Positions 14,437-23,999 of a DNA stretch of 26,943 nucleotides are shown here, piece after piece (the stretch's first letter is position 1; each line of letters begins with the position of its first letter). The notes beneath the pieces are model-generated. The model worked only from the letters and a program-made list of their open reading frames with translations. It was not told the origin of the DNA and did no database searches. The translations under genes and the position numbers were made by a program. This DNA is from an uncultured Pseudomonadales bacterium (GTDB lineage Bacteria > Patescibacteriota > Microgenomatia > UBA1400 > UBA12108): assembly GCA_964491465.1 (NCBI GenBank), contig CAZBFT010000002.1:1-26943 (forward strand), written 5' to 3'.

Positions 14437-16272
14437 TTAAATTTTGAGTATCTCGGTGAAGGCGGCCTGGGGGACCTCGACGCTCCCCAGCATTTTCATT
14501 TTCTTTTTGCCTTTTTTTTGCTTCTCGAGTAGTTTGCGGTTACGGGTCATGTCGCCGCCGTGTAGTTTGGCGGTCACGTCTTTGCGGTAGGCGCGGATTG
14601 TGGCGCGGGCAATGATCTTGCCGCCGATCGCGGCCTGGATCGCCACTTCGATCTGACTGCGGGGGATCACGTCTTTGAGTTTTTCGACCAATACCCGACC
14701 CCTCCCCTCGGCCTCACTGCGGGGGGCGACAAAAGAGAGGGCCTCGGCCGGTTCGGTATTGAGGAGAATATCTACTTTGACGGCGTCAACTGGAAGGTAA
14801 CCGGCGTGATCATACTGCACGCTAGCGTAGCCAGAACTCACCGATTTGAGACGGTCGTAGAAATTGGTAATGAGTTCAGCCAGTGGCATCAAGTAATTGA
14901 GCCGGACCCGACCAGAAACGTACTGCATATCCACAAATTCAGCCCGCTTGTTTTGGCAAAGTTCCATAATGCCGCCCACATAGGTTTCGGGGGTGTATAC
15001 GGTCAGGGTGACCATGGGTTCCTCCACGACATCGACCGTCTCTGGTTTGGGCCAGTCGGCGGGAGAGGAAATTTCCGAAGTGGTGCCATTTTTGATTTTG
15101 ATACGATAAGGGACCGAGGGCGAGGTATTGACCACGTTAACCTCGAATTCGCGGCTGAGGCGCTCGGTGACAATTTCGGCGTGGAGGATGCCCAGGAAGC
15201 CCACGCGGAAACCGTGACCGAGAGCAGGACTACTAGCCGCGTGGTAAGAAAGGGAGGTGTCGTTGAGGGCTAATTTGCCGAGAGCGTCGATAAGATTGCG
15301 ATAATCGGCTGCGTCCATGGGATAAAGATCCATAAAGACCATGGGTTGGGGACGCTGATATCCCTCGATGGGAGTGATGGTGGTACCCACGGTCGTGAGA
15401 GTGTCGCCAATAGTAATAGCGCGAATATCCTTGTGGCCGGTGGCGACAAAGCCAACTTCGCCTGATTTGATCGCGTCAGAGCTACGCATGTCGGGAGAGA
15501 AAAAGCCGATGTCGAGTGGAGATAACTTTTCCTGGGTAGCGTAAAGGAAAAGCGAGTCACGGTTGGATTGGTTGATCTCCCCTGCAATTACTTTCACAAA
15601 GGCAATCACGCCTTTGTGGGTGTCGAAGGTACTATTAAAAACTAGTGCCCGTAAATCCGTAGATCCGTGAATCCGTGAATCCGTGTAAGGAGCTGGGATG
15701 CGAGACACGATGGCGTCCAAGAGTACTGGAACACCCTCACCGGTTTTGGCAGAGACAAAGAGAATGTCGTCGTGGGTAAATCCCAGATTTTCGATGAGTT
15801 CGAGGGCAACTCTTTCCGGCTCGGCTCCAGCCATGTCGATTTTGTTGATGACAGGGATAATGGTTAAGCCAATTTCTTTGGCTAAGGCATAATTGGCCAA
15901 GGTTTGAGCCTGGACGCCCTTGGTGGCGTCAACTACTAGGACGGCACCTTCGCAGGCGTGGAGGGCGCGGCTGACTTCGTAGCTAAAGTCGACATGCCCT
16001 GGTGTGTCGATCAGATTCAGAATGAATTCTGAATCTGAATTCTCAAATCTTAAATTCTCCAATTGCTCCAATTGGGGGTGATAAATCATCCGGACGGGGG
16101 CGAGCTTGATGGTGATGCCGCGCTCGACTTCTATGGGATTGCTATCCATGAGGCGCACTGTTCCCCCCGGAGCCACGGTGCCGGTAGCTTCGAGTAAGCG
16201 ATCGGTCAAAGTAGTTTTGCCATGGTCAATGTGGGCAATAATACTAAAATTTCTTATATTGGGTGTATTCAT
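14437..16272 (-). CDS. lepA: Translation elongation factor 4 (LepA) (611 aa)
   Basis: IRNFSIIAHIDHGKTTL, ERGITIK, LIDTPGHVDFSYEVSR, NKID, GFRVGFLGILH, RKLLEKQKKGKKKMK. Confidence 0.98.
   Translation of the reverse strand: MNTPNIRNFSIIAHIDHGKTTLTDRLLEATGTVAPGGTVRLMDSNPIEVERGITIKLAPVRMIYHPQLEQLENLRFENSDSEFILNLIDTPGHVDFSYEVSRALHACEGAVLVVDATKGVQAQTLANYALAKEIGLTIIPVINKIDMAGAEPERVALELIENLGFTHDDILFVSAKTGEGVPVLLDAIVSRIPAPYTDSRIHGSTDLRALVFNSTFDTHKGVIAFVKVIAGEINQSNRDSLFLYATQEKLSPLDIGFFSPDMRSSDAIKSGEVGFVATGHKDIRAITIGDTLTTVGTTITPIEGYQRPQPMVFMDLYPMDAADYRNLIDALGKLALNDTSLSYHAASSPALGHGFRVGFLGILHAEIVTERLSREFEVNVVNTSPSVPYRIKIKNGTTSEISSPADWPKPETVDVVEEPMVTLTVYTPETYVGGIMELCQNKRAEFVDMQYVSGRVRLNYLMPLAELITNFYDRLKSVSSGYASVQYDHAGYLPVDAVKVDILLNTEPAEALSFVAPRSEAEGRGRVLVEKLKDVIPRSQIEVAIQAAIGGKIIARATIRAYRKDVTAKLHGGDMTRNRKLLEKQKKGKKKMKMLGSVEVPQAAFTEILKI
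15653..15684 (-). repeat. In-frame octamer tandem repeat in lepA
   Basis: Minus strand (CACGGATT)2 CACGGATC TACGGATT region; plus strand AAATCCGT AGATCCGT GAATCCGT GAATCCGT. Confidence 0.85.
16011..16075 (-). repeat. In-frame degenerate AATT-rich repeat with 13-bp inverted repeat in lepA
   Basis: TCAGATTCAGAAT-ga-ATTCTGAATCTGA (16011-16038) followed by irregular 6-9-nt AATTCT/AATCT units. Confidence 0.7.
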
Positions 16273-16281
16273 AGGGTCTTT

Positions 16282-16409
16282 TCAGTTTGTCAGTAGCTCG
16301 GCGAATCGGCAAGTCGGCTATATCAGTAAATCAGAAAATGCATTAATTGCTGATAAACTGGCAAACTGGTCGACTGGTATGCTGACTAGCTGATTTGCTG
16401 GTGTGCTGG
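16282..16409. repeat. Palindromic degenerate octamer element A (murJ-lepA intergenic)
   Basis: Seven TCRGnnnn units (16282-16338), 7-nt loop, eight nnnnCTGR units (16346-16409). Confidence 0.85.
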
Positions 16410-16410
16410 A

Positions 16411-18063
16411 TTATACCGAACTTTCGCTGGTATCGAGAGTTTCCTTGGAGAGCCCTAGGGCTTTGGGCCAGTTGCCGATCTTTTCGATTAAGCGAATAAA
16501 GACGCCAAGTTCGCGGATATTGAGGAAGTAGGAACAAGCCAGGTATACGCCAGTACCAATCAAGGTAACCGAGATAGTGAGCATGATCAGAGGGACGGTG
16601 CGGGTAGTATCAAATATCATTTGATCCAGATAGCGGAATGGGACCCAAAGGGCAATCGCGGTGACTCCGGTAGCTAGCAGCATTTTGCCTAGAGGAGCTA
16701 AGATGTGTGAAACGGCAAATTGGGCCAAGCTATAGAGGATGGAGGTAAGGATCACGGTCTCGATGAGCGAGGCGACGGTGATGGCAAAGGCCATGCCGAG
16801 TACACCAGATTTGATCACAAACAGAAAATAGTAACTCAGACTTACGTTGGTTATGGTTGAAAGCAAGTTGACAATAAAGGGAGTGCGGGTATCGTGAAGC
16901 GCGTAAAAGACGCGGACCAACACGTGGGTGAGCGAGCGGGCGGCGATGGAGATGGCCAAAATGGCAACCAATTTGCCAGTCAAGACGGTCTCCGCCCAGG
17001 GGAAAGAATCGGCTCCGTAAGCCAAGCGAACCAAGGGAATACGCAAGATGAGGACAATAACTGAAGCGGGAAGTGCCAGGTATAACATTTCCAGAATAGT
17101 GTTGTTGACCATGGTGGCTAAGTCACTAAGGTTGTGACGACCAGTTTCTTTGGCAAAAAACGGTAGCGAAGCCTGGCCGATCGGGATCCCAATTAAACGA
17201 ACGGGCAGGTTGGCTAACTGCTGGGCGATAGAGATAATAGTCACCGTGCCGACGGAGAGCCAAGAGGAAAAAGTGATGATGGCTGTCGCCTCGATTTGAG
17301 TAAGAGATAGAGTTAAGACCCTGGGGAGCATTAGACCCCCCATCTCGCGTACGGCGGGATGACGTAAGTCGATGGTGGGGAGATAGCGGAAACCTAATTT
17401 ACTGGCTAGGGGTAATTGAGCTAATAAATGTAGGCAGGCTCCCATCACTACTCCGATGGCAGCGCCATAAATACCCATGGATCGTCCAAACAACAGAATG
17501 CCCAAAATAATACCCAAGTTATACAAAATCGGGGACAGGGCCGGGATCAAAAAGCGTTTGTGGGATTGGATGATGCCGGTGAGGAATGAAGAGAAGCCAA
17601 AAAAGAGCTGGGCAGCGGCCATGATGCGGGTAAGGTTGGTCATTAGGGATAATTGGTCCGCTGAAAAACCACCAGCAATCAGCCGGGAAAGTGGGGCAGC
17701 AAAAATAAAGATAGCGGCCGAGAGCACAATCATGACCAACATAACAGCGTTGATCAGAGAGCAAGCGATTTTGTTGGCGTGGCCATTGTCACCCAAGTAG
17801 CGGCTAAAAACTGGGATAAAAGCGGAGGAGAGGGCGCCGACAATGATAATTTGAAAGACCATGTCTGGTAGCCGGAAGGCAGCCCAAAAAACATCTACGA
17901 TCCGGGGATCGGCGTAAAAGTAACTGATGAGCAGGCGAGTGCGAATTAAACCAAGTACAGCCGAGCCAAGCGTGGCGCCCATGATAATGGTGGCGGCGGA
18001 GAGGATGGAAGAACTTTCTTTTTCGAAAAGATCGCGGCCGTTTTGCATAAAGCGTTTGAACAT
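16411..18063 (-). CDS. murJ: Lipid II flippase MurJ (MviN) (550 aa)
   Basis: VLGLIRTRLL, AAFRLPD, ALSSAFIPVF, PALSPILYNL, QLANLPVRLIG, RVFYALHDTRTP; many TMs. Confidence 0.93.
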   Translation of the reverse strand: MFKRFMQNGRDLFEKESSSILSAATIIMGATLGSAVLGLIRTRLLISYFYADPRIVDVFWAAFRLPDMVFQIIIVGALSSAFIPVFSRYLGDNGHANKIACSLINAVMLVMIVLSAAIFIFAAPLSRLIAGGFSADQLSLMTNLTRIMAAAQLFFGFSSFLTGIIQSHKRFLIPALSPILYNLGIILGILLFGRSMGIYGAAIGVVMGACLHLLAQLPLASKLGFRYLPTIDLRHPAVREMGGLMLPRVLTLSLTQIEATAIITFSSWLSVGTVTIISIAQQLANLPVRLIGIPIGQASLPFFAKETGRHNLSDLATMVNNTILEMLYLALPASVIVLILRIPLVRLAYGADSFPWAETVLTGKLVAILAISIAARSLTHVLVRVFYALHDTRTPFIVNLLSTITNVSLSYYFLFVIKSGVLGMAFAITVASLIETVILTSILYSLAQFAVSHILAPLGKMLLATGVTAIALWVPFRYLDQMIFDTTRTVPLIMLTISVTLIGTGVYLACSYFLNIRELGVFIRLIEKIGNWPKALGLSKETLDTSESSV

Positions 18064-23875: not shown

Positions 23876-23996
23876 TCTGCACGTCAGTGAATCAGTTTGC
23901 CGGTTTGTTAGTATGTCGGTTTATCAGGTAATCGGTGTGTTGCTGGCAAGCTGGTAGTGATGACTAGCCGAATTGCCGGGTGTACTGATGTGCTGA
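23876..23996. repeat. Palindromic degenerate octamer element B (between convergent genes)
   Basis: Seven to eight YYRGnnnn units (23876-23939), then seven nnnnCYGR-type units (23940-23996); shares units such as TCAGTTTG with element A. Confidence 0.8.
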
Positions 23997-23999
23997 TTA

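Follow-up and report, generated by a model that had tools for sequence, protein, structure and literature searches.

Element A (16282-16409) occupies the space between lepA and murJ, two genes that are both encoded on the minus strand of the window. The window, by which we mean the whole stretch of 26,943 nt that was analysed, lies on contig C2 of an assembly (genome G000) that amounts to 859 kb in 129 contigs, is 86% complete and has a G+C content of 49%. lepA (14437..16272, minus strand) was recognised by its Pfam domains GTP_EFTU and LepA_C, and its start codon (16270..16272, minus strand) is 9 nt from element A. On the other side, the element ends 1 nt from the stop codon of murJ (16411..18063, minus strand; Pfam). 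A TATAAT sequence resembling a -10 box is found at 16410..16415 of the minus strand and overlaps the murJ stop codon (16411-16413), while no TAnnnT box and no Shine-Dalgarno sequence is present between element A and the lepA ATG. Public contigs with the same lepA come from a groundwater metagenome, and the closest named relatives are "Microgenomates group bacterium GW2011..." and "Candidatus Woesebacteria". Element A is identical in DNA contigs from two groundwater samples, with zero variants in unit number, and identical also in three public contigs that carry lepA. As a separate observation, lepA itself holds further short-period repeats at 15649-15685 and 16053-16074 (both by Tandem Repeats Finder), of period 8 (CCGTGAAT, 4.6 copies) and of period 9.

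Element A is composed of 7 + 8 octamer units that form a TCRG-N4 arm, a loop and an N4-CTGR arm. The left arm (16282..16338, plus strand) has seven units of TCRG followed by a 4-nt spacer, in the order TCAG twice, TCGG three times and TCAG twice, with a single 9-nt unit among the TCGG units. The tail ends of both arms meet at the central loop TGCATTA (16339..16345). The right arm (16346..16409, plus strand) has eight units of N4 followed by CTGR, which is either CTGA or CTGG. Re-reading of the sequence gave the arms and the loop of this ladder exactly as the initial annotation had written them. We use the term L strand for the strand of an array that reads YCRG-N4. The L strand of the left arm is the plus strand, which is the G-rich strand here, and this is also the orientation of the single arrays described below. 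The right arm is an inverted copy of the same family; its L strand is the minus strand, which reads CCAG five times and TCAG three times, and the arm opens with the head motif of the family, CCAGCACACCAGCAAA. The pattern (TCRG-N4)x3 has four matches in the window where 0.03 are expected from shuffles. Three of them overlap within element A and the fourth, near 23916, belongs to element B (about 23876..23998, plus strand), a second inverted dimer of the same family that lies between convergent genes. An inverted-repeat search restricted to Watson-Crick pairs misses element A on account of its wobble pairs.

That pairing in element A favours the strand antisense to murJ and lepA was the central claim of the initial annotation, and it was borne out when both strands were folded. 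As RNA, the plus strand reached -55.5 kcal/mol (z -5.6; 0 of 200 shuffles as good) and the minus strand -28.0 kcal/mol (z -2.2); as DNA, the plus strand was again the better folder (-18.8 versus -11.8 kcal/mol). Shuffled versions of the element averaged -34.9 kcal/mol for the plus and -20.8 kcal/mol for the minus strand, and because these averages already differ by 14 kcal/mol, about half of the RNA folding gap is accounted for by composition alone. The hairpin predicted for the plus strand only (16290..16409) is a near-continuous helix of 44 pairs, made up of 18 GC, 16 AU and 10 GU. The spacers pair too, so that the earlier description of 4-bp helices separated by 4x4 loops has to be replaced. 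Its other structural point is correct, in that the positions of the plus-strand G-U pairs are A-C mismatches on the minus strand. The minus-strand (sense) RNA is C/A-rich and weakly folded. Element B has the same polarity as element A (-51.5 versus -25.8 kcal/mol), with eight wobble pairs on the plus strand versus two. We agree with the annotation that element A is not an mRNA terminator: it has no U-tract, 0 terminator-like sites were found in 15900-16800, and the sense strand folds weakly. Rfam gave no match at gathering score in the window, and the sole match of a relaxed search (E up to 1) of 16150-16550 was a chance match outside element A.

The further copies anticipated by the initial annotation exist throughout the genome. 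When YCRG cores were chained at 8-nt spacing, 38 arrays of at least 6 units were found in G000. With the threshold lowered to at least 4 units, the chain finder returned 61 chains in the real genome and 11-13 per shuffled genome. A typical array has 7-8 units, which corresponds to arms of 56-64 nt, and eight arrays lie less than 200 nt from a contig end. The arrays share a position-specific consensus on the L strand (head TCRG-CACA, YCAG-CAAA, TCRG-CGAG, TCRG-CTAG and so on), which marks them as copies of a single ~60-nt sequence rather than unrelated microsatellites. They occur in two forms, namely inverted dimers of about 120-180 nt that fill intergenic gaps, of which there are 10 including elements A and B, and single arms, most of which are in long open reading frames (ORFs) and which fold weakly alone. 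About half of the arrays are inside ORFs. Element A is one inverted dimer of this dispersed ladder family, not a unique RNA gene. We did not find the family described in the literature searched, nor anything on such repeats in CPR genomes, and regard it as previously undescribed.

Covariation among homologues, the absence of which the initial annotation had named as counting against its reading, was not seen between the arms. Partner arms are 63% identical, compared with 67-73% for arms that are not partners. Chimeric hairpins, in which the left arm of one element is combined with the right arm of another, fold no worse than native ones (in G000, means of -55.7 kcal/mol for chimeras and -51.8 kcal/mol for native hairpins), and in this comparison element A takes fourth place of 10. 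Pairing is a property of the family consensus and not of individual hairpins.

In-frame arrays of G000 are found in a Val/Ile-type tRNA synthetase (C52:3338-3415), two RNR copies (C4:17243-17302 and C92:651-711), LeuRS (C22:2610-2664), UvrD (C2:29906-29966), a GT4 glycosyltransferase (C11:12232-12291), Fmt (C5:11744-11803), Fpg (C50:5247-5298) and the linker of DnaX (C31:1993-2156), where a whole dimer is in frame. These in-ORF ladders encode peptides of 18-55 residues such as IGTPASQRISKSASQ. The linker of Fmt that the ladder occupies is unchanged in length. In Fpg, the loop that is minimal in 11 orthologues has 18 extra, ladder-encoded residues in G000. At this same loop (loci L233-L253), G000 and G007 have the TCRG ladder, G025, G021 and G031 have a TCTCAAAT ladder, and G023 and G008 have other repeats, so that either the loop has been hit repeatedly or it is the sole site that tolerates inserts. 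The C-terminal regions of RNR on two contigs (G000:C4:17130-19310 and G000:C92:3-896) have the ladder at the same place with differing sequence; the two contigs could represent a second gene copy, a strain mixture or contamination, which is estimated at 3%. We also observed that, between recR and dnaX, a gene for a PF05635 "23S rRNA intervening sequence" four-helix bundle adjoins a ladder array (L257:890-1249, G000:C31). Diversity-generating retroelements (DGRs) have an accessory protein, Avd, that is related to this Pfam family. No reverse transcriptase was found in G000, the genome with the PF05635 gene beside a ladder.

Outside G000, the pattern (TCRG-N4)x5 was found in 16 of the 24 genomes of the taxonomic family. 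Across the 151 genomes of the order it was found in 18, namely the 16 of the family, one further genome with 22 matches and one with 2. A reversed control pattern was essentially absent (about 0). G069, a genome of the same order, has 14 matches to the reversed pattern (a GRCT-N4 ladder), which points to a further ladder family built on another core. The favourite units differ by genome, G004 for instance using CGTG and CATA spacers. In the same genome, about ten TCGGCATA units follow one another in near-perfect tandem (G004:C17:4568-4651), which shows recent slippage at the level of the single unit.

The adjacency of murJ and lepA is kept in 23 of the 23 family genomes with a lepA match (loci L138-L160). 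In nearly all 23, TATAAT or a near-variant (TATACT, TAGAAT or TAAAAT in a few) is found at the murJ stop, and in about half of them the lepA ATG follows this box by 6-12 nt, which makes the gene leaderless or near-leaderless. In the remaining family genomes, box and ATG are separated by inserts that differ: G025, G029 and G031 have an 8-nt ladder of GAATTT type, G028, G022, G023 and G007 have elements whose inverted ends are of GGTCAGACC type, G004 has a different hairpin, and G010 and G030 have another, unclassified insert. The TCRG ladder occupies this site only in G000 and is absent at the locus from 22 of 22 related genomes. Judged from these sequences, element A was inserted in this lineage only, at a hot or permissive position that separates the lepA ATG from its conserved TATAAT. 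The TATAAT at 16410..16415 is a probable lepA promoter, and because of this the sense (minus-strand) version of element A would probably form part of a lepA leader of ~130 nt.

We next consider what the direction of the wobble pairs follows. For each of 22 dimers from four genomes (G000, G004, G008 and G030), a small sample whose members are not independent, transition mismatches between the arms were counted as G-T on one strand or the other. The resulting polarity within elements departs strongly from randomness (chi-square 65, 22 df). The initial annotation had described an asymmetry opposite to the flanking transcription. This is true of element A, whose wobble-rich strand is opposite to lepA and murJ, but it is not a rule of the family: of the 13 dimers with co-directional flanking genes, 6 have more wobbles on the antisense strand, 5 have more on the sense strand and 2 favour neither. 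Transcription-coupled deamination was rejected as a cause, because the expected wobble-rich strand would then be the non-template (sense) strand, contrary to what element A shows.

Of 20 dimers, 15 have more wobbles on the G-rich strand and 5 have more on the other (rho 0.51, p 0.02), where the disparity between G and C was taken from 4-fold sites after correction for gene direction (|D| 0.2-0.7 everywhere). When pooled, 179 wobbles fall on the G-rich strand and 88 on the other (2.0:1), which is close to, but somewhat higher than, the neutral ratio of about 1.45:1 estimated from 4-fold-site frequencies. Elements A and B together have 17:3, and element A, at 9:1, is not an outlier from the 2:1 of the family (binomial p about 0.1). 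Selection may to some extent have favoured pairing on the G-rich strand or disfavoured it in the lepA leader. The letters of the core shift in a strand-dependent way as well: where the L strand lies on the C-rich strand, C at position 1 rises from 14% to 29% (p 4e-5) and G at position 3 falls from 42% to 30% (p 0.004). When core composition was compared crudely with local total GC skew, no correlation was seen, because nearly all single arrays share one orientation; the signal emerged with the 4-fold-site measure and after division into strand classes.

The strand disparity itself belongs to the chromosome. On contig C2, the 4-fold G/C skew is +0.22 for genes of the plus strand and +0.54 for genes of the minus strand; being positive for both, it makes the plus strand G-rich whatever the gene direction. 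Over G000, the 4-fold disparity has |D| of about 0.4 on 87 contigs and is likewise independent of gene direction. For Microgenomates, a G/C disparity of this kind that spans the whole chromosome is on record (PMC7143001). In G000, 218 of 650 genes are on the G-rich strand and about two thirds on the C-rich one. Because of this disparity and this distribution of genes, better folding of the antisense strand is what is expected for most palindromes in G000.

The arrays, those of G000, G004, G008, G021, G025-27, G030 and G064, also obey rules of orientation. Adjacent arrays come in the order L-then-R 23 times and R-then-L 0 times, so that dimers are always head-out. Raw flank skew places the L strand of 55 of 61 single arrays on the G-rich strand. 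The 4-fold measure does so for 49 of 53, and among in-ORF arrays the ratio is 25:0, though only a third of the genes are on the G-rich strand. Composition does not explain this preference, because the L-strand consensus has about equal G and C. Dimers were sought in G064 and G034, which belong to another taxonomic family, and only single arrays were found. The rules hint at a strand-specific making or keeping of arrays, in which the inverted arm is added at the tail, and they show that the family is not simply drifting junk and that some strand-specific mechanism exists. At the level of the family they keep a reading in terms of single-stranded DNA plausible, yet they are no evidence for a function of the element A hairpin.

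Candidate mobilisers were searched for and none was found to fit. PF01797 and the Y1 protein of a relative match nothing in G000, where at 86% completeness absence is not proof, and no Y1/HUH transposase was found in the ladder-bearing G030 and G021 either. RAYT/Y1 was rejected as the mobiliser on this ground and because its distribution is unlike that of the ladder. Reverse transcriptase was rejected since it occurs only in ladder-free genomes, and TnpB since there is none in any genome searched. The initial annotation had proposed a search for versions with an ORF in the loop; no transposase-like ORF was found there or between distant L and R arrays, the one ORF beside an array being that of the PF05635 protein. 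The ends of the arrays are too degenerate to define a target-site duplication. Multi-copy IS200-like Y1 genes encoding about 230 aa are present in G008 (L132:1240-2020, G008:C14), G004 and G025. The one that was inspected, in G008, is flanked by and contains a different palindrome, TTTACAGGGATCATCCCTGTAAA. This palindrome and its Y1 gene look like a separate REP/RAYT-like system of the relatives, which was not found in G000.

The ladder family resembles several known systems and is a member of none of them. With REP/BIME (PMC3333891) it shares short palindromic repeats in high copy number that fill intergenic space, often as inverted pairs, an orientation linked to the chromosome strand, and a single-stranded-DNA hairpin as the suspected working form. 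However, REP sequences are 20-40-nt palindromes with a GTAG-like head and are strictly extragenic, whereas ladder arms are about 60 nt of 8-nt units and occur in ORFs also; moreover, no Y1/RAYT gene was found in G000 and the Y1 genes of its relatives have a different flanking palindrome. Integron attC sites are likewise imperfect palindromes whose strands fold differently. Element A differs from them in having far longer, periodic arms and no cassette context, and neither of the attC core sites RYYYAAC and GTTRRRY is present on either strand of 16250-16440. The initial annotation had likened the hairpin to a single-stranded-DNA substrate of attC or REP type. A REP-like, strand-specific origin is plausible for the family in view of its orientation (55/61 and 23:0), but the features that define attC and REP/RAYT, that is the core sites and a Y1/RAYT gene in G000, were not found.

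Rickettsia palindromic elements (RPE; PMC10969869) are similar in that they inhabit a small, reduced genome, lie between genes as well as in frame in housekeeping genes, and in the latter add a peptide at permissive loops or linkers. They differ in that their lineage is unrelated, while the ladder has an internal 8-nt period, its in-ORF copies are mostly single arms, and element A is intergenic. The ladder is not known to have any obvious resemblance to RPE sequences, and the likeness is in the way of working, not in membership. Cyanobacterial STRR (PMC2670836) are dispersed intergenic, hairpin-forming arrays of short tandem units as well, of 7 nt instead of 8 nt. Period, core and phylum differ, and the ladder is fixed at about 8 units with position-specific spacers, forms strictly head-out inverted dimers and occurs in ORFs. 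MITEs share with the ladder a small non-coding palindrome with inverted arms, many copies and no coding capacity. Foldback-type elements have long inverted termini built of short tandem sub-repeats, and the family resembles MITEs of this type as well. For the ladder, however, no autonomous partner or transposase was found, and its ends are too degenerate for a target-site duplication to be defined.

We consider the most probable reading, at roughly 0.6, to be that element A is an inverted-dimer copy of the dispersed octamer-ladder family and most likely has no dedicated RNA product. Each arm is a copy of ~60 nt with eight units (core TCRG plus a 4-nt spacer) in a Microgenomates/Woesebacteria-like CPR lineage, and the palindrome consists of two arms joined tail to tail. 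On the G-rich (plus) strand, transitions towards G and T would turn A-T and G-C pairs into G-T, and the same changes would read as A-C on the C-rich strand, where two thirds of the genes lie, murJ and lepA among them. The one-sided G-U pairing would thus be mainly a by-product of the chromosome-wide disparity of G versus C between strands. The element itself would behave as selfish or neutral repeat DNA, tolerated where expression is unharmed. As suggested by the orientation rules, the family could spread via a strand-specific, replication-linked process with fold-back at the tail.

A stronger role for single strands is possible, with a clearly lower probability. The dimers could be substrates or products of a strand-specific process on single-stranded DNA, either REP/IS200-like or fold-back synthesis at replication, in which the hairpin would form on the single-stranded G-rich strand and G-T pairs would be tolerated on that working strand. 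Such a process would fit the placing of single arrays on the G-rich strand (55/61, or 49/53 by the 4-fold measure) and of in-ORF arrays (25:0), the head-out rule (23:0), a wobble ratio (179:88) slightly above the neutral estimate, and the better DNA fold of the plus strand of element A (-18.8 versus -11.8 kcal/mol). It is at odds with the lack of a Y1/HUH transposase in the ladder-bearing G000, G030 and G021, of which G000 is 86% complete so that absence is unproven there, and with the different palindrome that flanks the Y1 genes of the relatives. TnpB was not found, reverse transcriptase occurs only in ladder-free genomes, the arms do not covary, and the shift in composition is about the size expected from mutation pressure alone. 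In a tentative version that dispenses with a Y1 transposase, an unrecognised process specific to one replication strand would write 8-nt-period arrays on the G-rich strand only, essential genes included, and would sometimes fold back at the tail to give head-out hairpins like element A, the G-T polarity then marking the strand of the hairpin.

It is considerably less likely that the asymmetry was selected on the sense strand, such that A-C mismatches that break pairing in the lepA leader mRNA were favoured because they keep the start codon accessible and avoid termination, the antisense G-U pairs being their passive mirror image. Element A separates the conserved TATAAT from the start codon of a gene that has little or no leader in relatives, which would be in line with this proposal, as would the lack of a new -10 box or Shine-Dalgarno sequence adjoining the ATG and the weak folding (-28 kcal/mol) of the C/A-rich sense RNA. 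Against it, the sense strand is the strong folder in 5 of the 13 dimers with co-directional flanks, element B, which lies between convergent genes, has the same polarity on the same contig, and polarity tracks the chromosome strand.

We regard it as very improbable that element A encodes a cis-antisense small RNA transcribed from the plus strand, as the initial annotation had proposed. The strong plus-strand fold (z -5.6) favours such an RNA, and a consensus promoter scan gave three overlapping, weak sigma-70-like matches (16217..16260, plus strand) that point into the element. However, these promoter-like hexamers sit in conserved, AT-rich codons of lepA and are not evidence of an antisense promoter. 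No terminator follows the hairpin and no Rfam match was obtained; the element is absent at the locus from 22 of 22 related genomes; the about 40 copies of the family are in all kinds of contexts, ORFs included; and covariation is absent. No run recorded as RNA was found to contain the stretch. The proposal of an antisense RNA is unsupported. Equally improbable are clustered polar signals for protein binding (KOPS- or Chi-like oriented octamers, or sites of nucleoid or replication proteins), for although the strict 8-nt period, the conserved 4-nt core, the typical number of eight units and the strong G-rich-strand orientation would suit them, inverted dimers cancel polarity, cores differ between genomes at the same sites, many genomes of the taxonomic family have no arrays, and no candidate binding protein was identified.

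If element A is, as we favour, a copy of a dispersed repeat whose wobble asymmetry mainly mirrors strand composition, a warning for annotation follows: a large difference in folding energy between strands is to be expected in skewed genomes, and it is not in itself evidence of an antisense RNA. The ladder family itself is an interesting result. Genomes of CPR/Patescibacteria are thought to be streamlined and poor in mobile DNA, and no mobile elements are reported in a Microgenomates genome paper (PMC7143001). The genome studied here, of ~1 Mb, contains some 40 copies of a repeat with an 8-nt period, which occupies intergenic gaps and lengthens essential enzymes by 18-55 residues, like the palindromic elements of Rickettsia. 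In related genomes, different ladder families are found at exactly these sites, the lepA leader and the Fpg loop. The orientation rules make two questions testable together, namely the origin of this short-period repeat and the cause of the G/C disparity in Microgenomates.
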